A DNA stretch of 64,000 bases from an uncultured Candidatus Peribacteria bacterium (GTDB lineage Bacteria; Patescibacteriota; Gracilibacteria; Peribacterales; Peribacteraceae): positions 28,083 to 92,082 of the forward strand of contig CAZXIV010000003.1 of assembly GCA_964640945.1 (NCBI GenBank). Direction: 5' to 3'. Below are positions 4,662-47,515 of this stretch, in pieces (position 1 is the stretch's first letter; every line of letters begins with the position of its first letter). Below the pieces are notes generated by a model that was not told the origin of the DNA, did not search any database, and worked only from the letters and a program-made list of their open reading frames with translations. Made by a program: the position numbers and the translations under genes.

Positions 4662-5861
4662 ATGTTTTTCCTTTTGAATAAGAAAATAAATAGAATAGTG
4701 GTGATGTCTCCCCCTATATCAAAAATAAAGGAAGCCCCCGTGCCCTTTCGACAGAGCACGCTTTTAATGAAGGATGACTTCTGTAAGTACTGTGGAGAGA
4801 ACGGCATCAACGTCACACTCGAAAATTTGGAGGAATTTCACCGCATCGGTTTGTTCTATCCCGCCGTGCGCGTCGATCTTGGCTGTGGGGAGTTTCGCAA
4901 GATCTATGCGGTTTTCAACGGCCAGCATGAGTGGAGATTCGTGGAACCCCATCACATGGATGAATTCAAGCCCGAAAAAGTAGAGGACACGCCGTACTAT
5001 ATGACAGGCCCCCTCATGATGGGCGGCGACGACTGGCTGAAGTGGTATGAGCCGCACGATCTCGTGAGCTACCCTGCATCGAATCCGTACTTCAAGTGGC
5101 AGAAACGCGAACACTCCTACTTCATTACCGATAGGGAGAAGGCGGGGAATGTCTACGAATTGCTCTACGAAAAGCGACAGATCATCGCCCTGCAAATGAT
5201 TCGCGACGCCATGCGCTACTACAGCGATTTCACACCGCTTGCCGGAGGTCGCGTGAAGCGCTTCGTTCAAGAAAAGATAGCGCCCTTCTACCACTTCCTG
5301 CGCTTCTATCTGACTGTCGAAGAAATGCACGATCGATGGGTGCGTTTTGGCTATGAAAAATTCGATGAAGTAAAGAAGGAGGTAGGCGAGAAAAACGCGC
5401 TTGAAGAATGGCAACTCGATTTTACCCACGCCCAGCTTCCGGCCATGAAGAAAGAGGCGAAAGAAATCTTGAATTCACACAAGTTCACCATCGAGGATAT
5501 TGGATCGTGGCTAACGTTCCTTGCGAAGCAGAGCGTCCTCAATACCCGTAAACCTATCAAGAAGTATGTCATCGAAGTGCAGGACAAGACGCTCATCAAC
5601 GCCGAAGAAACGAACCGCATGATCTTGATCCTCAATGATTTGCTGTACGCGCTTACGGGCAAGAAGCAAACCGTGAAAGACGTGCTCAACGAATTGCAGC
5701 GCTATTGTGAGATCTGTCACACGCCGTTCATCCCTCGTCCTAACAAGAAGGATCAGTGGACATGCGCCGATCCTCGTTGCATGGCCGAGCACACGAACAA
5801 GCAAAAAAGATTGGAGCGGAGAGCAAAAGCCGAGAAAGAGGCACGTATGCGGCAAGTATGA
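4662..5861 (+). CDS. Hypothetical protein with C-terminal Cys/His zinc-ribbon-like motif and basic tail
   Basis: Long ORF in the AT-richer island with no competing ORF of coding quality. C-terminus reads CEICHTPFIPRPNKKDQWTCADPRCMAEH followed by a KR-rich tail. Start is uncertain (alternative ATG at 4704, MSPPISK). Confidence 0.55.
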   Translation: MFFLLNKKINRIVVMSPPISKIKEAPVPFRQSTLLMKDDFCKYCGENGINVTLENLEEFHRIGLFYPAVRVDLGCGEFRKIYAVFNGQHEWRFVEPHHMDEFKPEKVEDTPYYMTGPLMMGGDDWLKWYEPHDLVSYPASNPYFKWQKREHSYFITDREKAGNVYELLYEKRQIIALQMIRDAMRYYSDFTPLAGGRVKRFVQEKIAPFYHFLRFYLTVEEMHDRWVRFGYEKFDEVKKEVGEKNALEEWQLDFTHAQLPAMKKEAKEILNSHKFTIEDIGSWLTFLAKQSVLNTRKPIKKYVIEVQDKTLINAEETNRMILILNDLLYALTGKKQTVKDVLNELQRYCEICHTPFIPRPNKKDQWTCADPRCMAEHTNKQKRLERRAKAEKEARMRQV

Positions 5862-5916
5862 AAACAACGGTTTGAAACGGCTATAAGAAGAGGGCTTATC
5901 TCCCGCCCTCTTCTTT

Positions 5917-7218
5917 ATGGCATCCAAATTCGCTACGACAAAGCGCTCTTCAGATCTTCGGATTGTGATGGTGCCGATCGATGCGTTGCATCCCGCGACC
6001 TACAATCCTCGCAAGTGGGACGAAGCCGCCCTCGAACGGCTCACGGAGAGTATACGGAAATTCGGGTTCATCGATCCGGTCATCGCCAACGGTGCTGCCA
6101 AGCGGAAAAATATCGTCATAGGAGGTCACATGCGGCTCGAAGCCGCCAAGAAACTCGGCATGAAAACCGTACCCGTGGTGTACGTTGATATTCCGAACAT
6201 CAAACAGGAAAAGGAACTGAATCTTCGCCTCAACCGTACCACCGGGGAGTGGGATTGGGAGAAGTTGAAGGCATTCGAGATCGACGTGCTCATGGACGTG
6301 GGATTCGGGGATAGCGAACTCTCGAGCATTTGGGATGGAATGCTCGAAACGGAAGATGACGGATTCGACGTCGAAAAAGAACTTGATGACATCAAGAAGC
6401 CGAAGACGAAGCCAGGACAGCTCTATGCCCTCGGCAATCACCGCCTTCTGTGTGGCGATGCGACGAACCCTGATGATGTGCGAAAGCTCACCGGGAAAAT
6501 GAAGCCGGACATGGTGTATCTCGACCCGCCCTATAACATCACGCTCGACTACAACAAAGGGGTGGGCGGTTCCATGCGGTACGGCGGGACGACGCGGGAT
6601 AATAAGAGTGACGAGGATTACGCGGCATTCCTGCGTAGCGCCTACAAGAATGCGCTGAGTGTGACGAAACCGGATTGTCATTTCTTCTGCTACTGCGATC
6701 ACAGCTACATCGGCCTCCTCCACGCGCTCTTTGACGCGGTAGGACTGAGGCCGCAGCGTACGTGCCTATGGATCAAGAATAATTTGAACGTGACTTTGGA
6801 AGTCGCGTTTTCCAAATGCTACGAACCGTGCGTCTACGGGATTCGCGGGAAGCCGTATCTCAACAAAAGCATCCGCAACCTCGCGGAAATCTTAAACAAG
6901 GAAGTCGGGAGCGGGAACCGCGCCGTCGATGACATCCTCGATCACCTCGACATCTGGCTCGCGCACCGCATCCACAATTCCCAGTACGAGCATCCGACCG
7001 AGAAGCCACCAACGTTGCATGAGAAACCGTTGCGGCGCTGCACCAAGCCCGGAGATATCGTGCTCGATCTCTTCGGAGGCTCCGGCTCGACCCTTATCGC
7101 CTGTGAGCAACTGAAGCGCCGGGCGCTCCTTATGGAAGTGGAGCCGATTTTCTGTGACCTCATCATCCGCCGCTTCGAAGCTCTCACGGGCGCGAAAGCT
7201 TCCCTCCTCAAGTCATGA
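5917..7218 (+). CDS. ParB/Srx-like N-terminal domain fused to a beta-class N6A/N4C DNA methyltransferase
   Basis: N-terminus VPIDALHPATYNPRKW...VIGGHMRLEAAKKLG is ParB-nuclease-like. Motif IV is VYLDPPYN and C-terminal motif I is VLDLFGGSGSTLIACEQL, the order typical of beta-class MTases. Confidence 0.85.
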   Translation: MASKFATTKRSSDLRIVMVPIDALHPATYNPRKWDEAALERLTESIRKFGFIDPVIANGAAKRKNIVIGGHMRLEAAKKLGMKTVPVVYVDIPNIKQEKELNLRLNRTTGEWDWEKLKAFEIDVLMDVGFGDSELSSIWDGMLETEDDGFDVEKELDDIKKPKTKPGQLYALGNHRLLCGDATNPDDVRKLTGKMKPDMVYLDPPYNITLDYNKGVGGSMRYGGTTRDNKSDEDYAAFLRSAYKNALSVTKPDCHFFCYCDHSYIGLLHALFDAVGLRPQRTCLWIKNNLNVTLEVAFSKCYEPCVYGIRGKPYLNKSIRNLAEILNKEVGSGNRAVDDILDHLDIWLAHRIHNSQYEHPTEKPPTLHEKPLRRCTKPGDIVLDLFGGSGSTLIACEQLKRRALLMEVEPIFCDLIIRRFEALTGAKASLLKS

Positions 7219-7994
7219 CGAATTTTACGGTGAAACTCGGCGATCGATTTACGCTCGGAGACCATGTCCTCGTGTGCGGCGACTGCACGGATGCATCGCT
7301 CGCGAGCGATGTGCTCGGGAAAAAGCGAATCTCCCTCATCCTCACCGACCCTCCCTATGGCATCGCCTACGTGGAGGGAAAAGAGGGCTTCCGAAAGGCG
7401 AAGACGACGCATACGGCGATCAAAAACGATCACCTGCAGAGTGACGGCGAGTACCGCATCTTTACGCGTCGGTGGATCGAAACCGCAAAGCCTTTCCTCC
7501 AGCGTAAGAACGCCCTGTATATCTTTAACTCCGATCGGATGATCTTTCCTCTCAGGGAAGGCATGCAGGACGCCGGGTGCCATCTGGCGCAGCTCCTCGT
7601 ATGGGTGAAGACCCAAGCCATCGTCGGGCGGCTCGATTACCTCCCCCAACATGAACTCATCGCCTACGGCTGGCTCGGCGTGCATGAATTCCACAAATCC
7701 AAGGACAAGAGCGTCATCGTGTACCCGAAACCATCGAAGAGTGTCCTGCACCCCACCATGAAGCCCGTGGGACTGCTGCGGCAGCTCATTCTCAATAGTT
7801 CCAAAATCGGAGACACGGTCTACGAACCCTTCGCCGGCAGCGGAAGCACGCTCATCGCATGCGAACAGACGAAGCGAAAATGCGTCGCCGTTGAAATGGA
7901 CCCGCATTACTGCGAGGTGATCATTCGGCGTTTTGAAAAACTGGCGGGTATCGACGCGATTAAACTTCTTTCTCCCAAGACCCATGCCCGATAA
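7215..7994 (+). CDS. Beta-class N6A/N4C DNA methyltransferase (second, stand-alone)
   Basis: Motif IV is LILTDPPYG and motif I is VYEPFAGSGSTLIACEQT. ATGA start/stop overlap with the upstream MTase. Confidence 0.85.
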   Translation: MTNFTVKLGDRFTLGDHVLVCGDCTDASLASDVLGKKRISLILTDPPYGIAYVEGKEGFRKAKTTHTAIKNDHLQSDGEYRIFTRRWIETAKPFLQRKNALYIFNSDRMIFPLREGMQDAGCHLAQLLVWVKTQAIVGRLDYLPQHELIAYGWLGVHEFHKSKDKSVIVYPKPSKSVLHPTMKPVGLLRQLILNSSKIGDTVYEPFAGSGSTLIACEQTKRKCVAVEMDPHYCEVIIRRFEKLAGIDAIKLLSPKTHAR

Positions 7995-8463
7995 GAAAGC
8001 CGTGCACCGCGACTCGGCAGTTATCGAAGCACGCAAAGCCCGCGAGCAGGCGTCGCTTTTGGAACAACTGCGTAAAGTACCGATCGTGCAGATCGCCTGC
8101 GAAAAAGTGGGCATCGGACGGGCAACGTACTATCGATGGAAAAAAGAAGACGAGGAATTCGGGAAAACGGCCGACGAAGCGCTCGTCGAGGGGGCGCAAC
8201 TCGTGAGCGACATGGCCGAGAGCCAACTTCTGACCGCGATCCGCGACGGGAACCTCGGGGCGGTCATGTACTGGTTGAAACACCGAAATCCCCATTACAA
8301 CAACAAACTGGAGGTGACGGCCAGACTCAAGAACATGGACGATGAACTTACGCCGGAGCAGGAAGCCGCGATCACCGAAGCCTTAAAACTTGCTTCGTTT
8401 ACCGAGGAGGAATCTTCCGATCCTCCAACCGCTTCCCCGATGCAGCATGAAGAAGCAGCCTAA
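7984..8463 (+). CDS. Terminase small subunit-like HTH protein (phBC6A51/homeodomain-like type)
   Basis: HTH IACEKVGIGRATYYRWKKEDEEF and downstream AVMYWLKHRNPHY are typical of phage small-terminase HTH proteins. Sits immediately upstream of terL. Start was moved to the ATG at 7984 (MPDKK). Confidence 0.6.
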   Translation: MPDKKAVHRDSAVIEARKAREQASLLEQLRKVPIVQIACEKVGIGRATYYRWKKEDEEFGKTADEALVEGAQLVSDMAESQLLTAIRDGNLGAVMYWLKHRNPHYNNKLEVTARLKNMDDELTPEQEAAITEALKLASFTEEESSDPPTASPMQHEEAA

Positions 8464-9997
8464 GAAACTGCTGGCTGACGAGCTACGCACACGGATGCTC
8501 AAAGACCGTGTCTTTCGGCTGCAGACCGTGAAAGCGAGTCACTATTGGTTCTTCCACTTTTACTTCTGGCACTACGTGCGCTTCAGGACGGCGCCGTTCC
8601 AGAAACAGATGTTTGCGATGACGGAGAACAACGAACACCGGACGGTAGTGATCACCGCCTTCCGAGGATCCGCAAAGTCCACCGTCATGAATCTTTCGTA
8701 TGTGCTGTGGTCGATTCTCGGAACGCCGCAGAAAAAGTTCATCATTCTCGTGGGACAGACGCAGGCCCAGGCAAGGCAGCATTTGAAAAACATCAAAGAG
8801 GAACTAGAAAACAATAAGATGCTCCGTGCCGATCTCGGACCGTTCCGCGAGGAAGAAGACGAGTGGAGAAATTCCTGCCTGGTGATCAGTAACTATAAAG
8901 CGAAGATCATGGCGGTAAGCATCGATCAATCCGTCCGCGGCCTGCGCCATGGGCCGCATCGTCCCGACCTTATCGTCTGCGACGACATCGAAGATTTGCA
9001 GTCGGTCAAAACAAAAGAAGGGCGGGACAAGACGTACCAGTGGGTGAAAAGCGAGCTGATGTCCGCCGGAGACACGACCACGCGGACCGTATTCATCGGG
9101 AACCTCCTGCATGAAGACTGCCTCTTAAAACGGCTTCAGAAGGAAATCGTGGCGGGGCAATTGCAAGGCATCTATCGGGAATTCCCCCTCGTCACCCTGG
9201 AAGGAATTTGTTTGTGGCCGGGGAAATATCCGACGGACGAGGCGATCGAGGCCGAGCGGCAGCGTATCGGCAGCGACAGCGCGTGGTATCGGGAATATCT
9301 CCTCCGGATTTTGGCGGACATCGACCGCGTCATTCACTCCGATTGGATCAGATGCTATGACGAATTTCCGCCGGAGAAAGACAAGGAATTTGAGTTTCGA
9401 TACGCGGCTACCGGCATCGATCTTGCGATTTCCCAGAGCGAGAGCGCGGATTTCACGGCGATGGTGTCGGCGAAAGTGTATCGGGAAGATGGGAAGGCGC
9501 TGATTTACATTCTCCCGAACCCCGTGAACGAACACCTCACGTCGCTGGAGACATTGGACCGCGCCAAAGAAGTGTCCAAGGCAATCGGAGGCGGTGAGAA
9601 GACGCACCTGTGCATCGAGGAAGTGGGCTATCAGGGAATGATGATCGAGACGCTCGATAAAGACGGCTACGACGTGACGGGAATGAAGGTGAAGAACCAA
9701 GACAAGCGAGCGCGGCTCGCGCTGACCTCACATTTGTTGCAATCGGGTAGGGTTTTGTTCCCCCGACACGGTTGCGAGGATCTCATCAATCAATTGGTGA
9801 ACTTCGGCATCGAATCGCACGACGATCTCGCCGATGCGTTTGCCATTCTCCTGGCATACGTTCTGGAAAAAGGGATTGGCTCAAGCTTCGGGATTATATG
9901 GATCGGTGGGCATGATGATGACGATGACGACGATGTCCATTGGCGAAGGGCGGGACTGCACAATGGCCGACAAAATATTCTCAATATGCGATTTTAG
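8447..9997 (+). CDS. Phage terminase large subunit
   Basis: Walker A-like AFRGSAKST and Walker B LIVCDDIED. RNaseH-fold nuclease signatures ATGIDLAISQSESADFTAMV and HDDLADAFAILLAY. Start was moved to the ATG at 8447 (MKKQPKK), overlapping the terS stop. Confidence 0.78.
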   Translation: MKKQPKKLLADELRTRMLKDRVFRLQTVKASHYWFFHFYFWHYVRFRTAPFQKQMFAMTENNEHRTVVITAFRGSAKSTVMNLSYVLWSILGTPQKKFIILVGQTQAQARQHLKNIKEELENNKMLRADLGPFREEEDEWRNSCLVISNYKAKIMAVSIDQSVRGLRHGPHRPDLIVCDDIEDLQSVKTKEGRDKTYQWVKSELMSAGDTTTRTVFIGNLLHEDCLLKRLQKEIVAGQLQGIYREFPLVTLEGICLWPGKYPTDEAIEAERQRIGSDSAWYREYLLRILADIDRVIHSDWIRCYDEFPPEKDKEFEFRYAATGIDLAISQSESADFTAMVSAKVYREDGKALIYILPNPVNEHLTSLETLDRAKEVSKAIGGGEKTHLCIEEVGYQGMMIETLDKDGYDVTGMKVKNQDKRARLALTSHLLQSGRVLFPRHGCEDLINQLVNFGIESHDDLADAFAILLAYVLEKGIGSSFGIIWIGGHDDDDDDDVHWRRAGLHNGRQNILNMRF

Positions 9998-10055
9998 GCC
10001 ATTTCGGGGATGTGAAGGGTTTTAGGTAAAGGCATGCGGGTCTTTCGCCTGGCCT

Positions 10056-11474
10056 TTGGTGTCGGGCAACGCCATTGGTGTAGGTACAACTTTCCCCATC
10101 CCATCTATGGCGACCACCACTCTTATTCACACGTCCGGCGACGCGCGCATCGGTACGCCGCCTGAAAAAATCATTATCAATCCGCGCTATTGCCTCTATG
10201 CGCGTAAGTCGAGCGAGGAAGATGAGCGGCAAGCGCTCAGTATCGATTCGCAAATCAAAGAGATGCTCGCTGTCGCGAAACGGGAGAACCTTGAGATCGT
10301 GGAAATCCGACGCGAGAGTCACAGCGCGAAGGCCTCCGGTGCGCGTCCCATATTCAAACAACTCCTCGAGGACATCCGGCGCGGAGGATTTACTGGCATC
10401 CTGACGTGGGCACCGGACAGATTGAGCAGAAACGCCGGAGACTTGGGTACGGTCGTCGATCTCATGGATCAGGGTTTCCTTATCGATATCCGCACGCATG
10501 GTCAGCGGTTCACGAATAATCCGAATGAAAAATTCCTGCTTATGATTCTGTGCTCGCAAGCGAAGCTGGAAAACGATAATAGAGGACTGAACGTGAAGCG
10601 CGGACAGAAAACACGCGTGGAGATGGGATACCGACCGTGCCTCGTTCCGCTCGGCTACCTATTGGAAAAGCAATCAGGATTGGCGAGGGGAAAAGTGGTG
10701 ATCGATCCCATACGGGGACCGGTCATTAAGCAGATGTTCGAGCACGTAGCACATCACGGTGCCAGTGGACGGGTTTTGCAACAATGGCTCCGTGACGAGA
10801 TGAACTTCACGACGCGGAAAGGCAAACGCATCACCCTAAGCATGATCTACCGGATGCTGCGCCAGCACTACTACAAGGGGCGCTTCGAGTATCCGCAGGG
10901 CAGCGGCAACTTTTACAAAGGCGATTATGAACCGATCGTGCCGGAGGATCTCTTCAACGAGGTGCAGAAACTCCTCAGCATGGGACCGAAGCGCGACTGG
11001 GGCTCCAAAATGGATAACTTCCACTTCACACGAATGTTCCTCTGCGGCGGATGCGGGTCGGGCATTACCGCCGAAGAGAAGCATAAACCTTTAAAGGACG
11101 GCAGCATTAAGAAATACATCTACTACCGTTGCACGCATTACCGGAATCTCGGGTGCAAAGAGCCGGCTATTCGGGAGGATGCATTGATCGCTCAACTTTC
11201 GGAGATCATCGATGCCATTGATCTCGACGAGCTAGGGATGCGGATGAAACTGGAGGACGAAGTCGCGCGATACAAGAAATTCACGAACGGCGTGTTCGGA
11301 AAGGAGTCCGCACCGGAGATGCTGGGAGTCGACGTGCGACGCTATGCAAAATATATCTTGCACGAAGGGACAAAAGACGAGAAGCACGAGCTGCTCGGAT
11401 GCCTCAAGACCAAGATGATCCTGAAGAGTGGGGCAATCGAGCTTGAGAAGAGGAGGAAAATCCCAAAACGCTGA
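10056..11474 (+). CDS. Large serine recombinase (resolvase domain + recombinase domain + zinc ribbon)
   Basis: Catalytic region YARKSSEEDERQALSIDSQ...TWAPDRLSRN. Downstream zinc ribbon CGGCGSGITAEEK...YYRCTHY and a coiled-coil tail. Start is uncertain (alternative ATG at 10107). Confidence 0.9.
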   Translation: MVSGNAIGVGTTFPIPSMATTTLIHTSGDARIGTPPEKIIINPRYCLYARKSSEEDERQALSIDSQIKEMLAVAKRENLEIVEIRRESHSAKASGARPIFKQLLEDIRRGGFTGILTWAPDRLSRNAGDLGTVVDLMDQGFLIDIRTHGQRFTNNPNEKFLLMILCSQAKLENDNRGLNVKRGQKTRVEMGYRPCLVPLGYLLEKQSGLARGKVVIDPIRGPVIKQMFEHVAHHGASGRVLQQWLRDEMNFTTRKGKRITLSMIYRMLRQHYYKGRFEYPQGSGNFYKGDYEPIVPEDLFNEVQKLLSMGPKRDWGSKMDNFHFTRMFLCGGCGSGITAEEKHKPLKDGSIKKYIYYRCTHYRNLGCKEPAIREDALIAQLSEIIDAIDLDELGMRMKLEDEVARYKKFTNGVFGKESAPEMLGVDVRRYAKYILHEGTKDEKHELLGCLKTKMILKSGAIELEKRRKIPKR

Positions 11475-11477
11475 TTC

Positions 11478-11699
11478 TTAGCCCTCGAATCGGAGTAACT
11501 TCCAGAGCGGGATATCAAAGCCGTCCGCCAGTTTCTGCAATATTTCCAGGCTGGGATTCTGCGGGTTCTTTCCTTCCAAATTCTGGATGTACTTAAGGCT
11601 GATGCGAGAGCGTCCGGCCAATTCCTCCTGAGTCAGATCGTATTTCCTTCTCAGGGAACGGATTTGGATGCCCAGTTGATGTGAGGTGTCTTTCTTCAC
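11478..11699 (-). CDS. XRE-family helix-turn-helix transcriptional regulator
   Basis: 73 aa containing LRRKYDLTQEELAGRSRISLKYIQNLEGK, a classic HTH_3/XRE motif. Confidence 0.85.
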   Translation of the reverse strand: MKKDTSHQLGIQIRSLRRKYDLTQEELAGRSRISLKYIQNLEGKNPQNPSLEILQKLADGFDIPLWKLLRFEG

Positions 11700-11856
11700 C
11701 CCGTTATCCTCGATTGTTCACCTGCTATTGAGAACCAATGATTGTAGGTGTATAACTGTGGGTAAAAGACTGGACACGTATGCCTTCTGGCGCGTTATGG
11801 CTGGCATTCGATCAGATCTGTGCCATTGCTTGGTACATCACTTCCTCCCCATCTCT

Positions 11857-12477
11857 ATGTCTTCTCAGACAACACCAGTTCCTCGGAAAATCACCCTCGG
11901 CTTGATCGTCGGCTGGGTGCTAGGGATCTTCCTGCTGCTGCCAGCGATATCGATGCTCACAACGCAGCCTGTAACAGGATTGGCATTACTCGCGGCATCG
12001 GCCGTTCTTCTACCACCAGTAATGGGATTCATTCAGAAGAAGGGGAACTTCCATCTATCCGGAGGGGTGAAATTCATCGTGGTCGTCGTTCTCTTGGGAG
12101 TAGCCGTAGGAACGATGGATCAATCACGGCTGCCGACTGCAGAACAAGTTGCAGAGCCGTCCGATACGCAGCCCGGTGCCGCTCAGGTGCCCGCTGTCGA
12201 GAAATCCTATCAGGAAGTATTCATCTTCAAAGGGAATGGAGCGAAGAAGTCTGAGCCATTCACCATCACGGGTGACAAATTCAAGATTGTGTACGACTGT
12301 AATGGAAGCCTCTGCCAAGCATGGCTAAAGAAGCCCGAAGGCGGATTCAGCTTCGAGCTAATCATGAATGGAACGGGACCGATCAAAGATGAAAGCATTT
12401 TTTACAATGCTGGCACCTACTACATCGAATCCAATTCCATCGCCACGTACACGATGAGTGTGCAGGATTATCGATAA
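11857..12477 (+). CDS. Membrane-anchored hypothetical protein (2-3 TM N-terminus, extracytoplasmic beta-rich C-terminus)
   Basis: The ATG at 11857 (MSSQTTPVPRK) precedes the hydrophobic segments LGLIVGWVLGIFLLLPAISML and GLALLAASAVLLPPVMGF. The upstream part of the tracked ORF overlaps the XRE gene and looks non-coding. Confidence 0.5.
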   Translation: MSSQTTPVPRKITLGLIVGWVLGIFLLLPAISMLTTQPVTGLALLAASAVLLPPVMGFIQKKGNFHLSGGVKFIVVVVLLGVAVGTMDQSRLPTAEQVAEPSDTQPGAAQVPAVEKSYQEVFIFKGNGAKKSEPFTITGDKFKIVYDCNGSLCQAWLKKPEGGFSFELIMNGTGPIKDESIFYNAGTYYIESNSIATYTMSVQDYR

Positions 12478-12492
12478 TTCTCCCCCAATGGC

Positions 12493-13026
12493 CTATCGAA
12501 AGAAGTCTTTCATAGGCTCCATTTGATTGTCATTTAGGCTGCTATAAGACAGCTTTCCATGCTCGTTTGGATGAGCAAACCAAAATGAGACTGGAGGAGC
12601 TTCCGGTCGATGAATGGGAGTTGCTGATCGAGTAAGGTATGTCGCTTGCCCATCCATGATGTGAATAAGAGCTATTCCATTTTCCTGCGCATACTTCAGT
12701 GCTCCTTCTTGGTAACCGGAAATCGAGAACATTATGCATTTCTGCGCATGTAATGATTGCTGTTTCGCCCAGAGCACCATTACAGCCTCTCTTTCCACGG
12801 GACGCTTCAGATGTTTGCACTCGACAAGTAGAAGGAAATCAAATCCCAGAATACGAAGTCGCGCTGTTACATCAATCTTATAGTCACCATCGTGAGCGGA
12901 TAACTCTTCCAAATGCTCTACTTGAAAAGATTCAAGACTGCCCCGCTTAGAGTCTGCAAGTTTTTGAAGAAAATCTCTGGTGTATTTCTCGAATTCAGCC
13001 GGAGTCAGGCTCTGAATTTGCTTCAT
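12493..13026 (-). CDS. Mrr-cat type PD-(D/E)xK restriction-endonuclease-fold protein
   Basis: LTPAEFEKYTRDFL N-terminus, then GDYKIDVTARL...FLLLVECKHLKRPVEREAV...IMFSISGYQEGALKYAQENGIALIHIMDG, matching the Mrr_cat layout (D ... ExK). The start at 13026 (MKQIQ) avoids overlapping the SLOG gene. The alternative start at 13083 overlaps it by 46 nt. Confidence 0.8.
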   Translation of the reverse strand: MKQIQSLTPAEFEKYTRDFLQKLADSKRGSLESFQVEHLEELSAHDGDYKIDVTARLRILGFDFLLLVECKHLKRPVEREAVMVLWAKQQSLHAQKCIMFSISGYQEGALKYAQENGIALIHIMDGQATYLTRSATPIHRPEAPPVSFWFAHPNEHGKLSYSSLNDNQMEPMKDFFR

Positions 13027-13037
13027 AAGTATTTGAG

Positions 13038-13526
13038 TTAGAAATTTTTTGTGACCTCGCGAGTTAGAGGATTTATGTGCCATAAGTGAACATTTCTGTT
13101 CTGGGCATACGCAACGATGTCAGCAGTACCTCCTAAGCCAGCAGCAGGTTTCCCATTCCACACAGCAATCATCACATTGGAAAGTTCAACCACTTTTTGT
13201 CCTGCGGCGAGATACGACTCTTCATCGGAAGCTTTCCTCGGTAATACTTCAATTTTCATTCCTAATCCTCGCATATCGTGATAACGATTTCGATCTTCCA
13301 ATTTTCCGAAGCTTTCCTCATACCCCTCAAACGGAACAACTATATATATCATGCCATCGTTTTTTAGGATTAAATCTGCAAACAATTGATCAGCGCCTGC
13401 GGCTAAAGAAGTGATTCCTGTCACTTTTGCAGGAAGTCCCTTGATGATCTTATTCATCTCATCTTTTACCCAAATCCAGTCGTCGTCATGAGGAAGCCGT
13501 TGATGACCTGTTATGCCGACTCTCAT
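13038..13526 (-). CDS. SLOG-superfamily (YpsA/DprA/LOG-like) nucleotide-binding protein
   Basis: Rossmannoid pattern MRVGITGHQ, SLAAGADQLFADLIL, IYIVVPFEGY and a C-terminal glycine-rich loop GKPAAGLGGTADIVAYA that resembles the LOG/SLOG PGGxGT motif. The call rests on motif resemblance only. Confidence 0.6.
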   Translation of the reverse strand: MRVGITGHQRLPHDDDWIWVKDEMNKIIKGLPAKVTGITSLAAGADQLFADLILKNDGMIYIVVPFEGYEESFGKLEDRNRYHDMRGLGMKIEVLPRKASDEESYLAAGQKVVELSNVMIAVWNGKPAAGLGGTADIVAYAQNRNVHLWHINPLTREVTKNF

Positions 13527-14476
13527 AGTTTGCCGCTGTTAGCGAGATACAAATAGAATTGACCGAGGGGGGTGAGTTTGCAGGATTTGCTATTCATCGC
13601 CGCAAAATACATATGCTCTTCTCCAACGGGAACAAGAAGGCGCGCCGCTCTGTACTTTTGAAGGTGGCCAAAAATCTCTTCGTGTTCGGGGTGATCCGGC
13701 TCTGCATCAGGTTCGTATGAAGGGTCAAGAGGGAATTCGTGTGAGGGATCAGGAAAGTACTTCGGCAATAGTCTAAGAATTGGGAGGTCTACCACGGGCT
13801 TACAAGTCCGTAAGGGGATTAATTTCGCAACGTGCGATTTAAAGAGTGGTCGCTGATCCCATGCTCCCAGAACTTGGTCGACATATGCATAGACACTTGC
13901 AACTGTGACATCACCGATGACATCCGACGCCCCTCCGTCCAGAGCTGCACACACAAGGGTCGTGAACACACCGGAACCATTTTCTTCAACAGATGGCTGA
14001 GAGTCCCTGCTGGCCGTGAGCACGGATACTCCCTGTCGCAAATGTGCGAGATCATTACTATTGCCCAATGCAGGCACGGCACCAAGCGCTCCACTATGAC
14101 AGCAATCAAGAATAATTACGACTTCATGGACTGGCGACTGATTGGCAAGACTGAGAACATCCTGCATGCTCACTCCTTCGTCATATTGGGCTGCATCCTG
14201 TGTCACCAAATAGCCACCCAAATTGTTCACTGTGCCATGTCCCGCAAAAAAGAGTAGTGCGACATCTGCTTCATGAGCGAATAATTCCTGAATATTTTTC
14301 TTCAGAGTTGCCTTCTGAACTTTCTCACCGGGAGCGGTCATGACTTTGCACTCGAAATTCTGAGAACCGTCGTGATTCTTTCGCAACATCTCAGCAATTT
14401 TATTAGCATCGTTTACGCATCCGGATAACGGCGTGTCCGAATAGTCGTCAATCCCGACGATGAGCGCTCGCCTCAT
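13523..14476 (-). CDS. Caspase-like cysteine peptidase (family C14) with uncharacterised C-terminal domain of about 150 aa
   Basis: ALIVGIDDYSDTPLSGCVNDA, catalytic His in LLFFAGHGT and catalytic Cys in VVIILDCCHSGA. ATGA overlap with the downstream SLOG gene. Confidence 0.85.
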   Translation of the reverse strand: MRRALIVGIDDYSDTPLSGCVNDANKIAEMLRKNHDGSQNFECKVMTAPGEKVQKATLKKNIQELFAHEADVALLFFAGHGTVNNLGGYLVTQDAAQYDEGVSMQDVLSLANQSPVHEVVIILDCCHSGALGAVPALGNSNDLAHLRQGVSVLTASRDSQPSVEENGSGVFTTLVCAALDGGASDVIGDVTVASVYAYVDQVLGAWDQRPLFKSHVAKLIPLRTCKPVVDLPILRLLPKYFPDPSHEFPLDPSYEPDAEPDHPEHEEIFGHLQKYRAARLLVPVGEEHMYFAAMNSKSCKLTPLGQFYLYLANSGKL

Positions 14477-14480
14477 AAGA

Positions 14481-14903
14481 TCAGTATTGAGAACGGTTCT
14501 TTCCTTCTCCCATCATTTGGTTAATCGCTGATGCAATGTTGTCCCACTCCCACGCGATAACTCGGTTCCTTGGAAGACTATATGGAAGAACGCTATTAAT
14601 GTTCGCCTGATCGACGTACACGCCGAACACTGGAACGTTGTTCCTGTCTGCCATCTGGATTTCCTTTTCCACCCCGTAAGCAGTGCTCATCGATCTTCCT
14701 ACAAGAACAATGACCATATTGGAACGGCTGATTTTTTCCTCGACCAGTCGTTCCCATTGGTTTTGCGGCATAGCGGCTTTCGCGGACCAATCCTGAATCG
14801 AGAAAGGAGTACGGGAATTCCTGCCTTGGCCGATAAAAAGCATTTTTTCTGTATCGTTATGATCGAAGTCGAAGCTAACGAATGCGCGAGGATCTGGAGT
14901 CAT
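14481..14903 (-). CDS. TIR-like domain protein (DUF1863 / ThsB-like class)
   Basis: 140 aa. AFVSFDFDHND at the N-terminus, ISRSNMVIVLVGRSMSTAYGVEKEIQMA with a conserved Glu, and PVFGVYVD, matching the MTH538/DUF1863 TIR-like layout. First gene of the operon, 4 nt upstream of the caspase gene. Confidence 0.72.
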   Translation of the reverse strand: MTPDPRAFVSFDFDHNDTEKMLFIGQGRNSRTPFSIQDWSAKAAMPQNQWERLVEEKISRSNMVIVLVGRSMSTAYGVEKEIQMADRNNVPVFGVYVDQANINSVLPYSLPRNRVIAWEWDNIASAINQMMGEGKNRSQY

Positions 14904-15044
14904 GAAAAATATGGAAGAGACAGGTGACAGTATAGCTGGATCCTGGCGTTAAACTAAAAATTCCACGGCGGAAGGCGGGCGGGTCTATCCACCACTGATT
15001 TCCCTCCTGCCCGGGCACGTGGGTCTATTAACACCTGTACGTCT

Positions 15045-15119
15045 TGGCTGGGGAGGAGGGATTCGAACCCCCGTATGACCGCTCCAGAGGCGGTTGCCTT
15101 ACCACTTGGCGACTCCCCA
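15045..15119 (-). tRNA. tRNA-Gln (anticodon CUG), CCA encoded
   Basis: The reverse complement folds as a cloverleaf: TGGGGAG/CTCCCCA acceptor with U1-A72, anticodon arm ACCGC-CTCTGGA-GCGGT, T-arm GGGGG-TTCGAAT-CCCTC and 3' GCCA. The arms correspond closely to E. coli tRNA-Gln as recalled from memory. Confidence 0.9.
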
Positions 15120-38072: not shown

Positions 38073-39041
38073 GCCATCGGCGACGGCGATCTTACTACCG
38101 GGCGTCTCCCAGGCGAGAAAGCACTCGCGTGCCTCGTTGCCGATGGAATGGACCATGACGCTCACGTCGTTAATAATAGGAGAATCAAAGCGGACCTCCT
38201 CGCCGTCCGGCAGGACGACCGACGGAACGCTGAACATATTCGCAATCAGGTAGCGCACGGGGTGGTGGCGTCCGGGATTAATGTCTGTACCGATACGACC
38301 AAGAGCGTGATTCGTAGCCGCAGAAGCAAACTTTTTTCCGCGGTAATCGGCGATAGGATGAGCCAGAGCCGGCGAGGTGCCGGGCTGGAAAGGCGCCACA
38401 CCAACATCGCTCAGGACGGCGGCGCAGGCGGGCTCAGTGCGAATCTCGGCAGCGACACGCTCGGCCAACTCGCGCTGCTGCGGGAAGAACGCGTCGCGCT
38501 GGGTCTGAGGATCGGGCACAAACATCAGCGGCTCGATGGCCAGATCATCCGGCAGCTCGATCTGCACGTCGGCCGCCCATGTGGACGGGCGCAAGCTGCC
38601 ACTCTGGGGATCAATGACGCAGCCGCGGGCATGGGAAATGACCCAATGCGGGGAGCAGAGCCTCGCTAAAATGTCGTCACGGCCGTAACCATCCACTTCA
38701 AGTAGGCCACCCTCCTGGGCAACAAGCCTACGAAACCCCGCCACTGGTCCCAGCATGCCAGCACGCTTTTGCCGGGCCGCCTCAACAAAACGCATGGCGA
38801 TTGTCAGCTGGCGACGACGATCAAGAAGCTCATCGACATCGGCCGGGGTCGCGGCTTCGGCTTCGATCTCGAACGCCGCCGTACTCTCGATCGTGCCCTG
38901 ACGAAGTAACGCTATGATGTGGGCCGTATGGGCGGCGCGGGCCTGCTCGGCCCGACGCCCAGCTTGCTGGCGGGCGCTCTCGGCGCGTAAGCGTGTTAGC
39001 AGGTCCGAACCAGTATTTTCTGCGGGATTCTCAGCAGGCAT
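38019..39041 (-). CDS. Hypothetical protein (340 aa)
   Basis: Long ORF with coding-like composition and no motif recognised. Its 3' end overlaps the convergent RSH gene by 54 nt. Confidence 0.45.
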   Translation of the reverse strand: MPAENPAENTGSDLLTRLRAESARQQAGRRAEQARAAHTAHIIALLRQGTIESTAAFEIEAEAATPADVDELLDRRRQLTIAMRFVEAARQKRAGMLGPVAGFRRLVAQEGGLLEVDGYGRDDILARLCSPHWVISHARGCVIDPQSGSLRPSTWAADVQIELPDDLAIEPLMFVPDPQTQRDAFFPQQRELAERVAAEIRTEPACAAVLSDVGVAPFQPGTSPALAHPIADYRGKKFASAATNHALGRIGTDINPGRHHPVRYLIANMFSVPSVVLPDGEEVRFDSPIINDVSVMVHSIGNEARECFLAWETPGSKIAVADGSVINANWLTAVRILRRS

Positions 39042-39112
39042 AAAAGAAAAGTGGCGCTATTCTGCATGGAATTCTTATCCTTGCAAGTCGCCCGCCGTAC
39101 GTTCAACCAGAC

Positions 39113-39607
39113 TTAGGCTGTCGCAAGGAGGGATATGTCTTCCGCAGGATGCAATCCAGAATCAAAAGAATGACATTCTTCCGCCATCAGCACATCAATC
39201 ACCGTGCGCACCTCTTTACATAATGCGGCAAAATCCACGCGGGGCTGATCAACATTTCGAAGAAGATCAGCTAGTACGATCTCACCAGTCAACTCAATAG
39301 CCTTATGTTCGATCAGCTCTCGAATCTCCCCACGCTGACGCAGCATCCTCGCCACTCGGCAAGCAGTAGCACTCAGAGGATGCCGAAGTAACAACGCCCG
39401 GATTTCTCTGCGAAGCGCTTCTTGCACACGGTTGTGGATAATAAGCACTGCCTCCTCGATTTCAAGAGCTTTTGCCTCCTCCAAAACACGTTGCACAACC
39501 TCTGCTTCCGTCTGAGGAATCGGAACGGTGTCGGAGGCCGAATCGTAGATGAGGGTATTGACTACCATTTGGGACCCAAAGTTTAAGAATATTGCCTCTT
39601 TTGTCAA
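39113..39607 (-). CDS. Hypothetical protein (164 aa)
   Basis: Lower-GC ORF, co-directional with its neighbours, no motif recognised. Confidence 0.45.
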   Translation of the reverse strand: MTKEAIFLNFGSQMVVNTLIYDSASDTVPIPQTEAEVVQRVLEEAKALEIEEAVLIIHNRVQEALRREIRALLLRHPLSATACRVARMLRQRGEIRELIEHKAIELTGEIVLADLLRNVDQPRVDFAALCKEVRTVIDVLMAEECHSFDSGLHPAEDISLLATA

Positions 39608-39659
39608 CTAAAGGCGACATGAAATTTGCGTGTAAAAACAAGGATGCGGTTCAAAAAGA

Positions 39660-41027
39660 CTAGATTGACCGCTTCGCCCGCCGAAACAACTCAAAACAAC
39701 GCTGAATCAAGTAACGAAAAACGATGTAATTGCGGGCGATATCGGCAGCTGAAACCCACTCTAGGGGGGAGTGAGCGCCACCACCTTTGATCGGAATACT
39801 GAGCGTCGGCTTACCGCCTTGGGCGGCATAGAGGCACTCGTCAGCATTAGAATGGCCGTACACGTAGTTGGCCGACGCGCCCGTGATACGCTCGATGGCA
39901 GCGTTGATCACGCCGACGTACGGATGCTTCGGATCGACCATAAAGGGGGAATACGAGGTACTATCGGGCCGTTTACTGAGCGACACGCTAATACCAGTGC
40001 GTTTCCAATCACGGATCACGCCGAGACGTTCGACGGCTTCCATCTGTACTTTGAGCGCCGACTCGATCGTGGACGGGGGCACGAGCAACATCTTGTAGTT
40101 GGTTTTCGCACTTTGGGGACGGATCAGCCCCTCCGAATCGGCACTCACATCGGCGGCGAAGATTTCCTCAAATCCAAGCGGGCCCGGCACGCTCCCCTCG
40201 TCTCCTGCCAATATCGGATGATGACGTAGATGTGGAGCAGCCGCGCGCAAGGCTGGCGAAAGCGGATCGAGCGCATCGGGGTTGAATATGCGGTACACCT
40301 GCGCCAGTTCGTGGTACGCCGAGGGCATGTTGGGGCGCGCACCGTGGCCCGCTCCCATTACCAACTTGGCATGAATGCCTGACTTGAGGATGCCGCGCCG
40401 ACCGCCAATGACGTTCATCTCGTCCTGGCCGGGCGGAACTTGGAGCGGTCCGATCTCGGAGGACAGCACGAGGTCGATACTCGAAAAATGCGGCCACTGA
40501 TTGATAATGTGCTGCGCAGCGTGCGAGCGGTATTCTTCGTCACCGGTAAAAGCGACATAGAGACACATGCCTTCGGGCACGTTCACTTCACGCAGGAGGT
40601 GGATGCCGTTCATGACCGATGATTGCATGTCATACACACCAAGACCCCGCAGACGATCGAGGTCATCAGCCTGGGCCGTAAGCACATGAGGACTATTCCA
40701 GTCGGTCGATGGTTTAACCGTGTCGGCATGAGCCACCACAAACGCGGTAAAGTCCGCCTTTTCGCGCTGACCAAGCTGACAAATAAGGTACGAGCTGTCT
40801 TCGGGCGTTTCTTCCCAGTAATCCACTATGCGTTGTTCGAAGGCTTCGGTCCCAATCAGCTGCTTAATGAGACCCATCTTCTTCTGGGCCAAATTTGGCG
40901 TATGCGATGGGCACCCCACCAAACGATCAAGGACGTTTCGGGACCAATCGTCGAGGTGATAGTTGGAAAGTGGCTTCAGTGGCACAGGTCCGTCATTGTC
41001 CCGTCGGGACGGGGTCAGGTCAATCAA
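39660..41027 (-). CDS. M20/M28-type metallopeptidase family protein (ArgE/DapE-like)
   Basis: VVAHADTVKP, GLGVYDMQSSV, VAFTGDEEYRS and a C-terminal GGGAHSPLEW match the metal-ligand blocks of M20 peptidases. Confidence 0.7.
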   Translation of the reverse strand: MIDLTPSRRDNDGPVPLKPLSNYHLDDWSRNVLDRLVGCPSHTPNLAQKKMGLIKQLIGTEAFEQRIVDYWEETPEDSSYLICQLGQREKADFTAFVVAHADTVKPSTDWNSPHVLTAQADDLDRLRGLGVYDMQSSVMNGIHLLREVNVPEGMCLYVAFTGDEEYRSHAAQHIINQWPHFSSIDLVLSSEIGPLQVPPGQDEMNVIGGRRGILKSGIHAKLVMGAGHGARPNMPSAYHELAQVYRIFNPDALDPLSPALRAAAPHLRHHPILAGDEGSVPGPLGFEEIFAADVSADSEGLIRPQSAKTNYKMLLVPPSTIESALKVQMEAVERLGVIRDWKRTGISVSLSKRPDSTSYSPFMVDPKHPYVGVINAAIERITGASANYVYGHSNADECLYAAQGGKPTLSIPIKGGGAHSPLEWVSAADIARNYIVFRYLIQRCFELFRRAKRSI

Positions 41028-45725: not shown

Positions 45726-46487
45726 TTAGGCCTTCTCCCACAGCTCTCGGAACATTGCGCGCAGGTTGGCGCTGAGACGCACGTCGTGGATCTCGACCAG
45801 GTAATGGGGCTTGGTCTCCGTCACGATCATCACCATGTATTCGCCGTTCACCCAGAGCGTCGATTTGATCTCGTCCTGCTGCTTCCAGAACTTCACCACG
45901 CGGTTGACGTAGTCGTGCTGAACCATCTTCCGCTCAATTTCCGATTGGTTCGTCAATAATCGGAGCGGAACGGTCTTATAATCGGGATTGGTCCAATACC
46001 AGTCGATCCAGTCCTTGTACTCTTCTACGAAGGTGTGGTCCTGGAAGCCCCACCAGACGTTGTCCGTCGCCCGGACGCTCGCGACCCACTTCGGACTCTC
46101 GCTCTGCAGGTAGGCGCCGATCTCGTCCTCGTCCACGAAGACGATTTTCGGGACGGAGTAGCGGACGTTCTTGGCGATGGTCTCCAGCTCGGAGACGACT
46201 TTACGAATGGAGTGTTCTTTCTTATTCAGGTTCTCCTTCTCTTTCTCGATGAGCTGGTAGAGATCCTCGGGCGGACGAGCGAGCACATACCGCTTCGACG
46301 AGGTGACATCCTCGCGGATCACTTTCCTATCGATGAGGTTCTTGAGCAGTCCGTAAACGGTCGTGCGGTTGATCTTGGTGAGCGACGCCAGCTCGGTCAC
46401 CGAAATTTTCCCCTGCTGAAGGATCATCAGATAGAGCTCGGTCTCTTTTTTGGTGAAGCCTAAATCAGCCAGAAGGACATCAATCAT
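45726..46487 (-). CDS. TrmB-family transcriptional regulator
   Basis: N-terminal wHTH LGFTKKETELYLMILQQGKISVTELASLTKINRTTVYGLLKNLIDRKVI plus a C-terminal effector-type domain. Confidence 0.8.
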   Translation of the reverse strand: MIDVLLADLGFTKKETELYLMILQQGKISVTELASLTKINRTTVYGLLKNLIDRKVIREDVTSSKRYVLARPPEDLYQLIEKEKENLNKKEHSIRKVVSELETIAKNVRYSVPKIVFVDEDEIGAYLQSESPKWVASVRATDNVWWGFQDHTFVEEYKDWIDWYWTNPDYKTVPLRLLTNQSEIERKMVQHDYVNRVVKFWKQQDEIKSTLWVNGEYMVMIVTETKPHYLVEIHDVRLSANLRAMFRELWEKA

Positions 46488-46663
46488 CCCTTCTAGTATA
46501 GTCTTTTTCTTGATTTTTGTCGAACAACCGCCAACAAATATAAAGTGTTTACTTTAAGCCAAAAAACTAAGAAATATACGAGCTATTACTGATAGTATTT
46601 TTGACCATTCCAACAGTAAAATGTATAAATTACATACAATTTTTACTTTCTGTCTACTACCAC

Positions 46664-47515
46664 ATGAATCCCTCAAAAAAGCCAGTCATGGCTTCCACCC
46701 TTTCTCTCCTGGCCCTCGGCCTGGCCGGGCTCGCCTTCCTCAACCGTGGTCCCGCCAACGGTGCCACACCGAGCGCGCTCTCGACCATACAAAAGACCGG
46801 CGTGATGCGCGTCTGTTACGCCGTCTGGCCACCGGCCGTCATCAAGGACGCCACCACCGGTGCACTCTCCGGCCACGACATCGACGCACTCCGCTACATC
46901 GCGGACCAAGTAGGCGCCAAGCTGGAGTTCTCCGAGCAGACGTTCGGCACCATGGCGACCGCCGTGCAGTCGGGCCAGTGCGACATCGGCACCTCGCTGT
47001 TCGTCAAAGTCGCCCGCGCCGCCGCCGTCAACTTCTCGACACCGCTCTTCTACGCCGGCAACAGCGCCTTGGTGCGCGCTGGTGAGACGCGATTTCGCAA
47101 CATCGAAGACATGAATAAGCCCGGCGTGACAATCGCCGTCGCCAACGGTGAGTCGGGTCACATCTACGCCAAGGAGAAGCTGCCGCTGGCCACCATCGTA
47201 CCGATCGACGTCGAATCCTCGGACCTGTCGCGCTTTCTCTTAGAGGTGGTCTCGGGTCGCGCCGACGCGGGCCTGGCTGACGCCAACACCATTGCCATGT
47301 TCGCCGCCGCGCACCCGGGCACCACGGACCTCTTCGCCGCCAAACCGTTCGATGTGAACCCCGACGCCTGGCCGGTGCGCCAGGGCGACCCCGACTTCCT
47401 ACAATTCATCAATAACTCGCTCGCCTTCATGCAGGCCAATGGCACCTGGCAGGAGCTCGAAGAGAAGTACGACGCCAAGTGGCTCCACGAGGTGACTGAA
47501 TACCGCATCCGTTAA
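46664..47515 (+). CDS. Amino-acid ABC transporter substrate-binding protein (SBP family 3)
   Basis: Signal peptide, then GVMRVCYAVWPP...GHDIDALRYIADQVGAKLEF...QSGQCDIGTS. Start was moved to the ATG at 46664 (MNPSKK). Confidence 0.85.
   Translation: MNPSKKPVMASTLSLLALGLAGLAFLNRGPANGATPSALSTIQKTGVMRVCYAVWPPAVIKDATTGALSGHDIDALRYIADQVGAKLEFSEQTFGTMATAVQSGQCDIGTSLFVKVARAAAVNFSTPLFYAGNSALVRAGETRFRNIEDMNKPGVTIAVANGESGHIYAKEKLPLATIVPIDVESSDLSRFLLEVVSGRADAGLADANTIAMFAAAHPGTTDLFAAKPFDVNPDAWPVRQGDPDFLQFINNSLAFMQANGTWQELEEKYDAKWLHEVTEYRIR

Follow-up and report, generated by a model that had tools for sequence, protein, structure and literature searches.

A stand-alone SLOG gene beside the caspase-like gene of a probable type IV Thoeris locus in an uncultured Candidatus Peribacteria bacterium

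Four adjacent genes and their products

The DNA considered here is a stretch of 64,000 nucleotides (nt), called the window below, from an uncultured Candidatus Peribacteria bacterium (assembly GCA_964640945.1, contig CAZXIV010000003.1, positions 28,083 to 92,082). Its element of interest is a compact block of four genes for a TIR-like protein, a caspase-like protease, a stand-alone SLOG protein and a small Mrr-type nuclease (Table 1), which we read as a probable type IV Thoeris defence system whose SLOG gene is a conserved companion of the caspase gene. A preliminary description made from the letters of this DNA had reported four co-directional genes packed almost without gaps, and the open reading frames (ORFs) bear this out: all four lie on the minus strand within 12493-14903, the TIR stop codon TGA is separated by 4 nt (TCTT) from the caspase ATG, the caspase stop and the SLOG start overlap as ATGA at 13526-13523, and the SLOG TAA is followed after 11 nt by the Mrr ATG. 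An alternative reading of the Mrr gene, from 13083, would give a protein of 196 amino acids (aa); we favour the start at 13026 because Mrr homologues are 177-180 aa long. The Mrr gene is probably co-transcribed with the other three. The block was also said to be the most AT-rich part of an island beside tRNA-Gln, which agrees with a GC content of 0.46-0.48 at 12-15 kb, the lowest of the island, as against 0.58-0.63 just past the tRNA gene.

Table 1. Features of the defence block and of the adjoining island, in window positions
Feature	Position	Strand	Basis
thsB-like TIR gene, 140 aa	14481..14903	-	Matches to the ThsB_TIR and PADLOC ThsB profiles; homology to PsTIR
Caspase-like gene (ThsE-like), 317 aa	13523..14476	-	Matches to Peptidase_C14 and the PADLOC caspase profile
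Caspase-like protease domain, residues 1-216	13829..14476	-	Profiles, invariant H80/D124/C126, AlphaFold2 model
Caspase C-terminal domain, residues ~217-317 plus stop	13523..13828	-	End-to-end homologue alignment, AlphaFold2 model
Stand-alone YpsA-like SLOG gene, 162 aa	13038..13526	-	AlphaFold2 model and Foldseek
Small Mrr_cat (PD-(D/E)xK) nuclease gene, 177 aa	12493..13026	-	Mrr_cat profile
Non-coding stretch from tRNA-Gln to the TIR start, presumed promoter region	14904..15044	-	Sole gap before the operon longer than 11 nt
tRNA-Gln(CTG) bordering the gene block	15045..15119	-	ARAGORN
Remainder of the lower-GC island	4662..12477	.	Pfam and PHROGs scans
Large serine recombinase	10056-11474		Pfam and PHROGs scans
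XRE regulator	11478-11699		Pfam and PHROGs scans

For three of the four proteins the folds first proposed are supported by profile searches at values far beyond chance. The TIR protein matches the Pfam ThsB_TIR profile (E-value 6e-9) and the PADLOC ThsB profile (9e-9), and it aligns across the whole domain with the published PsTIR (28% identity over 125 aa, pairwise E 8e-14); these matches and this homology uphold the earlier suggestion that the locus is related to Thoeris. A conserved glutamate had likewise been pointed out in the TIR protein. Such a residue is present, and the invariant one is E81 rather than E79: within VEKEIQ, E81 is aligned to the glutamate of the PsTIR motif KWEIQ, and it does not vary among 45 related TIRs. 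From these features the protein is a predicted phage sensor and maker of a NAD-derived signal.

The caspase-like protein matches Peptidase_C14 and the PADLOC caspase profile, each at 1e-21, and its residues H80, D124 and C126 (the last adjoined by C125) are invariant in the homologue alignment. Its AlphaFold2 model has a predicted local distance difference test score (pLDDT) of 86.8 and finds its best Foldseek matches in the MALT1 paracaspase and in metacaspases. The domain that follows the protease, taken at first for one of about 150 aa, measures about 100 aa (residues ~217-317) according to the profile match and the model, with pLDDT above 90 over residues 230-310. Relatives of this protein number at least 6489, and the best 120 of them are 62-100% identical to it and about 315 aa long. 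Specifically, its alignment with caspases from the two-gene TIR-caspase operons of the Escherichia coli plasmid pCREC-591_1 and the Proteus plasmid pPp47 covers the whole protein, residues 1-317, and R223, P227, F241, P252, E255, L280, T302 and G305 of the C-terminal domain are conserved in caspases with and without a linked SLOG gene. That this domain senses the cyclic ADP-ribose isomer N7-cADPR is a hypothesis of Rousset et al. (10.1101/2024.10.24.620036). One position in it differs between the groups: R276 (window 13649-13651) is found in 94% of SLOG-linked caspases versus 6% of SLOG-free ones, and could mark either a contact with SLOG or an altered ligand site. A blastn search of complete E. 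coli genomes with the caspase gene gave no match. An E. coli plasmid system among the sampled loci (L089) was considered as a possible copy of the validated E. coli 328 system and rejected, as the TIRs are unrelated.

The fourth protein matches the Mrr_cat profile at 2e-12, and the motif D46/D48...E69-C-K71 can be read from its sequence. Its catalytic domain begins at about residue 4, and we found neither an N-terminal DNA-recognition domain of the kind seen in canonical Mrr type IV enzymes nor any other Pfam domain.

The SLOG protein was placed by structure comparison. It has no match in Pfam (E<=1), PADLOC, NCBIfam or the sequences of the Protein Data Bank (PDB), and PDB sequence searches in which the queries were the caspase, SLOG and Mrr proteins and a SLOG profile returned nothing useful. 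Its AlphaFold2 model is a single domain with a pLDDT of 95.4, and the best Foldseek match is YpsA (2nx2; E 6e-9, TM 0.76, identity about 14%), in line with the fold that had been suggested for it. Further matches are to DprA, ShosA, the SLOG domain of ThsA in complex with 3'cADPR (7uxs; E 2e-4), LOG and the molybdenum cofactor (Moco) carrier protein. Within the family, G4, G7, H8, Q9, G44, D46, P65, F66, Y69, G130, G132, G133, T134 and D136 are invariant, and E102 and E103 nearly so. The tripeptide G44-A-D46, invariant in 50 sequences, fits the GxD/E signature that marks the predicted nucleotide-binding site of YpsA-clade proteins (PMC6459960). Two members of the family score 22.0 and 23.6 bits against the Pfam YpsA model (PF06908), for which the cut-off is 27.7; because PF06908 is not matched above its threshold, we treat the protein as part of a separate, unmodelled subfamily. 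As modelled, then, the protein is predicted to be a SLOG fold of the YpsA-like clade that belongs to a subfamily with no profile model of its own. This subfamily is large. A word-indexed search retrieved 1352 relatives, nearly all of 160-170 aa and none with a Pfam domain, and a profile search of 1.8 billion cluster representatives gave 9979 hits at E<=1e-3 and 278 at E<=1e-30. As Pfam, PADLOC and NCBIfam hold no model for the family, defence-system finders do not report it.

Linkage of caspase and SLOG genes across genomes

It is informative to view the gene block in light of two samples of loci: a SLOG-centred one of 80 species-representative loci that carry a SLOG homologue, and a caspase-centred one of 63 metagenome loci with enough downstream sequence. 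In high-GC loci, where greedy ORF calling is unreliable, assignments relied on Pfam matches, for selected neighbours only. A full-length ThsE-like caspase is present in 52 of the 80 SLOG-centred loci, and in 48 of them its gene lies directly upstream of the SLOG gene on the same strand, often with overlapping stop and start codons. These 48 loci span Acidobacteriota, Actinomycetota, Cyanobacteriota, Planctomycetota and other phyla, so that the stand-alone SLOG protein singled out in the preliminary description proves to be a conserved partner of the caspase. Viewed from the caspase, SLOG is directly downstream in 14 of 63 loci (22%), and in every one of those whose caspase is at least 58% identical to that of the window. 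The three-gene form is also found on the Bacillus subtilis plasmid pBS72 and on plasmids of Rhizobium and Agrobacterium. Furthermore, in a neighbour-joining tree of caspases the SLOG-linked members fall outside a large SLOG-free clade, to which the plasmid systems of E. coli and Proteus belong.

The TIR gene behaves differently from this pair. Individual loci have the order TIR-caspase-SLOG or a caspase-SLOG pair with the TIR elsewhere, and the TIR gene can be upstream of the pair, downstream of it, duplicated or swapped. Between the window and L001, its closest four-gene relative, the caspases are 93% identical, the SLOG proteins 79% and the Mrr proteins 70%, while the TIRs (L001:4677-5051 and 14481-14903) share only 30%; the TIR module has been exchanged. 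Taken together, the loci present the caspase-SLOG pair as the stable unit and the TIR as mobile. Pairwise distances of caspases and SLOG proteins are weakly correlated (Mantel r = 0.16), which is strong evidence neither for nor against physical contact between the two proteins. In L092, a close four-gene relative, the SLOG gene has a frameshift near residue 131 (L092:5499-5985), which may be either decay or an assembly error. An apparent truncation of the SLOG gene in L093, to an ORF of 73 aa, turned out to be an artefact of the gene caller, and that gene is intact.

About half of the SLOG-containing loci have a co-directional gene right after SLOG, and its identity varies: in many cases the product is another TIR or has a fold related to TIR, in one case it is a methylase, and the rest are unknown proteins. 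Examples of a second TIR gene in this slot are L028:6489-6974, L132:2103-2699, L037:6474-6911, L049:6522-7040 and L020:6486-7727, and in L028 TIR genes flank the caspase-SLOG pair on both sides. In L025 and L104 the slot is taken by a Nuc_deoxyrib_tr-like or a pentapeptide-repeat protein.

The SLOG family also occurs apart from caspases, in 28 of the 80 SLOG-centred loci, or about a third. Caspase-free homologues of about 40% identity were seen in Streptomyces and Actinoplanes (L057-L088; for example L073:6517-7431, minus strand), where the neighbours are SLATT_3 and SLATT_1 pore proteins, a radical SAM protein and STAND proteins of the BTAD-NB-ARC-TPR type; these SLATT-linked loci seem to be another conflict system, with this SLOG family at its centre. 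A homologue 49% identical to the window SLOG (L005:6001-6504; ENA ERZ26858849 contig_11) is part of a Moco biosynthesis operon, between a moaA-like radical SAM gene and moaC, moaB, moeA and mobA, and neither a caspase nor a TIR gene is close by. The fold of the Chlamydomonas Moco carrier protein (2iz7) is also among those matched by the model of the window SLOG. Fusions join the SLOG domain to TIR and WD40, to an 8xMP membrane domain, to a STAND NTPase and to TPR (P0371, 1164 aa; P0267, 339 aa; P0360, 1187 aa; P0384, 524 aa). These contexts point to conflict systems based on nucleotide signals, and sensing, sequestering and cleaving of a ligand are all compatible with them. Among GenBank phage records we found only distant DprA-like matches, in Microbacterium phages, and IMG/VR yielded two SLOG loci, both with a caspase; hence these two collections give no sign of a phage-borne anti-defence version of the family.

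Relation to type IV Thoeris and the roles of SLOG and Mrr

Type IV Thoeris consists of a ThsB TIR and a ThsE caspase-like protease (Rousset et al., bioRxiv 10.1101/2024.10.24.620036 / Science 2025), the names of the two parts being those of Yirmiya et al. The N7-cADPR made by the TIR switches on a promiscuous protease specific for arginine, and the published detection rule asks for adjacent TIR and caspase genes with at most one gene between them (Rousset et al.). In the window the two genes are separated by 4 nt and so fall under this rule, and on their sequences we assign the TIR and the caspase to type IV Thoeris as a ThsB/ThsE pair. The composition of the locus, which the preliminary description did not recognise, therefore has a core that is already known; what appears to be new is SLOG as a third component of type IV Thoeris. 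Like characterised type IV systems, the window locus has a TIR homologous to PsTIR and sits on a mobile island. It differs from them in the third gene, a SLOG gene coupled to the caspase gene, which it shares with about a fifth of the sampled relatives, and in the fourth, Mrr, which is confined to its own lineage; for its sub-clade, the signal chemistry and the protease specificity are predicted by homology.

The literature presents type IV Thoeris as a matter of two genes, with the caspase alone reading N7-cADPR. Two-gene systems suffice for defence, and their caspase answers N7-cADPR in lysates with no SLOG partner (Rousset et al.). Nonetheless, about a fifth of the loci sampled here, phylogenetically distinct and drawn from many phyla and from plasmids, carry a conserved SLOG gene coupled to the caspase gene, and full-text literature searches returned no description of a SLOG partner of type IV Thoeris. 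Such loci are already in the published catalogue. In Streptosporangium subroseum CGMCC 4.2132 (L065), given as a two-gene type IV system in Table S1 of Rousset et al., a SLOG gene directly follows the caspase gene, and among the 101 rows in part one of the table there are 22 whose gene numbers for caspase and TIR are two apart, which leaves one unlisted gene between them. This unlisted gene is not always SLOG, as the Mycobacterium sp. JS623 plasmid pMYCSM01 demonstrates: there a hypothetical gene of 95 aa, no full SLOG, follows the caspase gene (L179:3995-4282), and a large TIR is encoded on the opposite strand.

Our preferred interpretation, to which we give a probability of roughly 0.7, is that the locus encodes type IV Thoeris in a three-gene version, widespread and equipped with a conserved SLOG accessory, and that Mrr is a local add-on. 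For the identity of the signal and for the parts played by SLOG and Mrr, we infer a course of events as follows. The ThsB-like TIR, with E81 as its catalytic residue, would sense infection and turn NAD+ into a signal of the cyclic ADP-ribose type, which is N7-cADPR in characterised type IV systems. This signal would activate the ThsE-like caspase (H80/C126), probably through the conserved C-terminal domain, and the active caspase would degrade cellular proteins and so abort the infection. The SLOG protein, presumably translationally coupled to the caspase, may bind the same TIR-made nucleotide and modulate the activation of the caspase, most likely as a threshold or off-switch that either sequesters the signal or cleaves its N-glycosidic bond, and less likely as a co-sensor. 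Mrr would be a recent, lineage-restricted addition, acting as an independent small defence nuclease or as an auxiliary effector.

Several observations weigh against parts of this interpretation. The caspase is tied to ThsE by profiles and by its two-gene plasmid homologues rather than by an alignment with the validated PsCaspase or EcCaspase, and the signal molecule is assumed from distant homologues, the TIRs being only 28% identical. In 14 of the 52 caspase-SLOG loci no TIR was detectable by the queries used, and the pair stands next to CATRA, CHAT or EAD1, so it may not always act downstream of a TIR. That the SLOG family pairs with different effectors, a caspase here and SLATT in Streptomyces, and is also found fused to a membrane domain, is no less in keeping with a sensor than with an enzyme that degrades the signal. 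Likewise, Mrr keeps a spacing of 11-12 nt and stays with the block in three downstream contexts, which is compatible with a functional link in this lineage.

We favour a threshold or off-switch for SLOG because the caspase keeps a sensor-like domain of its own and because co-phylogeny of the two proteins is weak; a role as co-receptor is nearly as plausible. A stricter version of the latter makes SLOG the true or obligatory receptor, which binds the TIR product and switches the caspase on by protein contact, the caspase alone being unresponsive. It can draw on type I ThsA, where SLOG is the signal receptor, on the attachment of the family to the effector rather than to the TIR, on the SLATT pairing and membrane-domain fusion that resemble those of a sensor module, and on the separate clades and group-specific R276 of the SLOG-linked caspases. 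However, the caspase retains its C-terminal domain, with residues conserved as in SLOG-free systems, the caspases of two-gene systems respond to N7-cADPR in lysates with no SLOG, and the co-phylogeny is weak, and we consider obligatory reception somewhat unlikely. The protein might also be a second effector rather than a regulator, a LOG-like N-glycosidase that, once defence is triggered, would break down nucleotides or metabolites related to NAD. LOG enzymes share its fold, the invariant H8, Q9, D46 and D136 and the near-invariant E102 and E103 resemble active-site residues, and SLOG domains take effector positions in STAND proteins (Kaur et al. 2020); yet its sequence matches neither LOG nor any characterised enzyme, a single domain of 162 aa has no obvious separate regulatory part, and two genes suffice in other lineages, which leaves this proposal improbable. 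Finally, the SLOG gene could have nothing to do with its neighbours, being a hitch-hiker or a defence gene in its own right, in what would be a plain two-gene type IV system. Such systems do suffice elsewhere, the family is found apart from caspases (once in a Moco operon), and the gene is frameshifted in L092. Set against these points, in 48 of 80 species from many phyla it directly adjoins a caspase gene of the same orientation, often with overlapping codons; the pair persists while TIR genes are exchanged; and SLOG has a clade-structured distribution on the caspase tree. In view of this we find coincidence very unlikely.

A different question is whether all four proteins form one integrated system, with the TIR as generator, SLOG as sensor or processor, and the caspase and Mrr as two effectors, Mrr perhaps being licensed by the caspase or by SLOG. 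The co-directional genes with gaps of 4, -4 and 11 nt would suit such a system. So would the comparison with L092-L095, in which DNA identity of about 76% runs from tRNA-Gln through TIR, caspase, SLOG and Mrr and ends right after the Mrr stop codon, and that with L001, whose DNA has Mrr, SLOG and caspase (along with the recombinase and terminase of the island) in common with the window in spite of a replaced TIR and different downstream genes. However, all Mrr-carrying loci are close relatives, and shared ancestry is enough to explain the linkage. Only 14 relatives of Mrr were found; those at least 70% identical sit in the four-gene block, in L001 and L092-L095 only, while the relatives of 64% and 40% identity occur singly, away from any TIR, caspase or SLOG gene. 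None of the 80 SLOG-centred and none of the 63 caspase-centred loci (143 sampled) carries Mrr, and elsewhere the slot after SLOG is filled by a second TIR, a methylase or unknown genes. Because of this absence and of the variable gene after SLOG, Mrr is best viewed as a lineage-specific addition and not as a defining component. The four-gene system with two effectors that had been proposed at the outset is not supported as a conserved unit, all four genes being together only in L001 and L092-L095, and we judge an integrated four-protein system to be quite unlikely. A more specific pathway, in which SLOG gates or reshapes the TIR signal and the caspase, as a promiscuous arginine-specific protease, also licenses Mrr, for example by removing its C-terminal tail of about 55 aa, would make Mrr a bacterial counterpart of the caspase-activated DNase; we think this very unlikely.

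The main interest of the locus therefore lies in the undescribed SLOG component, and less in its four-gene composition. Should SLOG degrade or buffer the signal made by the TIR, Thoeris would have an off-switch encoded by the host itself, and no description of such a role was found in the literature searched. The closest functional analogy would be to the CARF ring nucleases of type III CRISPR systems, in which a free-standing signal-sensor fold also stands beside a signal-activated abortive effector in a subset of loci; fold and signal chemistry differ, and degradation of the signal by the window SLOG is purely conjectural. If SLOG is a co-receptor, the model of caspase activation would need to be revised for this clade.

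The window SLOG and type I ThsA (SIR2-SLOG) both bring a YpsA-like SLOG domain of the STALD group to TIR signalling. In the window, however, this domain is a separate protein with neither SIR2 nor any other effector domain, it accompanies an effector that has a putative sensor domain of its own, and it has no sequence-level similarity to ThsA. With B. subtilis YpsA (DUF1273) it shares the GxD/E motif, the small single domain and a predicted ligand of the NAD or ADP-ribose type, whereas YpsA has links with gpsB and with the inhibition of cell division rather than with caspases, and the window SLOG has no Pfam YpsA match. The SLOG-SLATT and caspase/CHAT/CATRA systems (Burroughs et al. 2015; Kaur et al. 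2020, PMC7159879) resemble loci elsewhere in the family, inasmuch as SLOG homologues stand beside SLATT in Streptomyces and some caspase-SLOG pairs stand beside CATRA, CHAT or EAD1; in contrast, the window locus has a simple Thoeris-type TIR and none of those partners. Pairs without a TIR were seen beside CATRA-N/C and EAD1, CATASP or CHAT-TPR at L071:2465-4978, L161:2079-3974, L032:6946-10272 and L069:6518-7024. CATRA-N/C and EAD1, CATASP and CHAT-TPR are parts of caspase/TPR conflict systems (Kaur et al. 2020, PMC7159879).

Genomic setting of the block

The defence block occupies the end of the lower-GC island that borders on tRNA-Gln, and this island is a prophage-like or satellite-like element. 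In two relatives, L093 and L094, the TIR gene likewise has tRNA-Gln as its immediate upstream neighbour. In the window, the remainder of the island encodes two unknown proteins of 399 and 263 aa, a ParB-methyltransferase, a second methyltransferase, a small and a large terminase, the recombinase and the XRE regulator. Its recombinase and terminase are shared with L001 at 67-78% DNA identity. As no capsid or tail genes were noticed in 4662-11699, this part may be a phage satellite or a prophage remnant. A search for att repeats gave no direct repeats of at least 16 nt, and the boundaries of the island were not located. A simple scan for sigma-70 promoters and terminators gave no minus-strand sites, the presumed promoter region included, and fewer sites overall than shuffled sequence. 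Elsewhere in the window the GC content dips to 0.51 at 39001-40000 and to 0.54 at 46001-47000, as against about 0.62-0.65 around them, and these two intervals may be other acquired segments.

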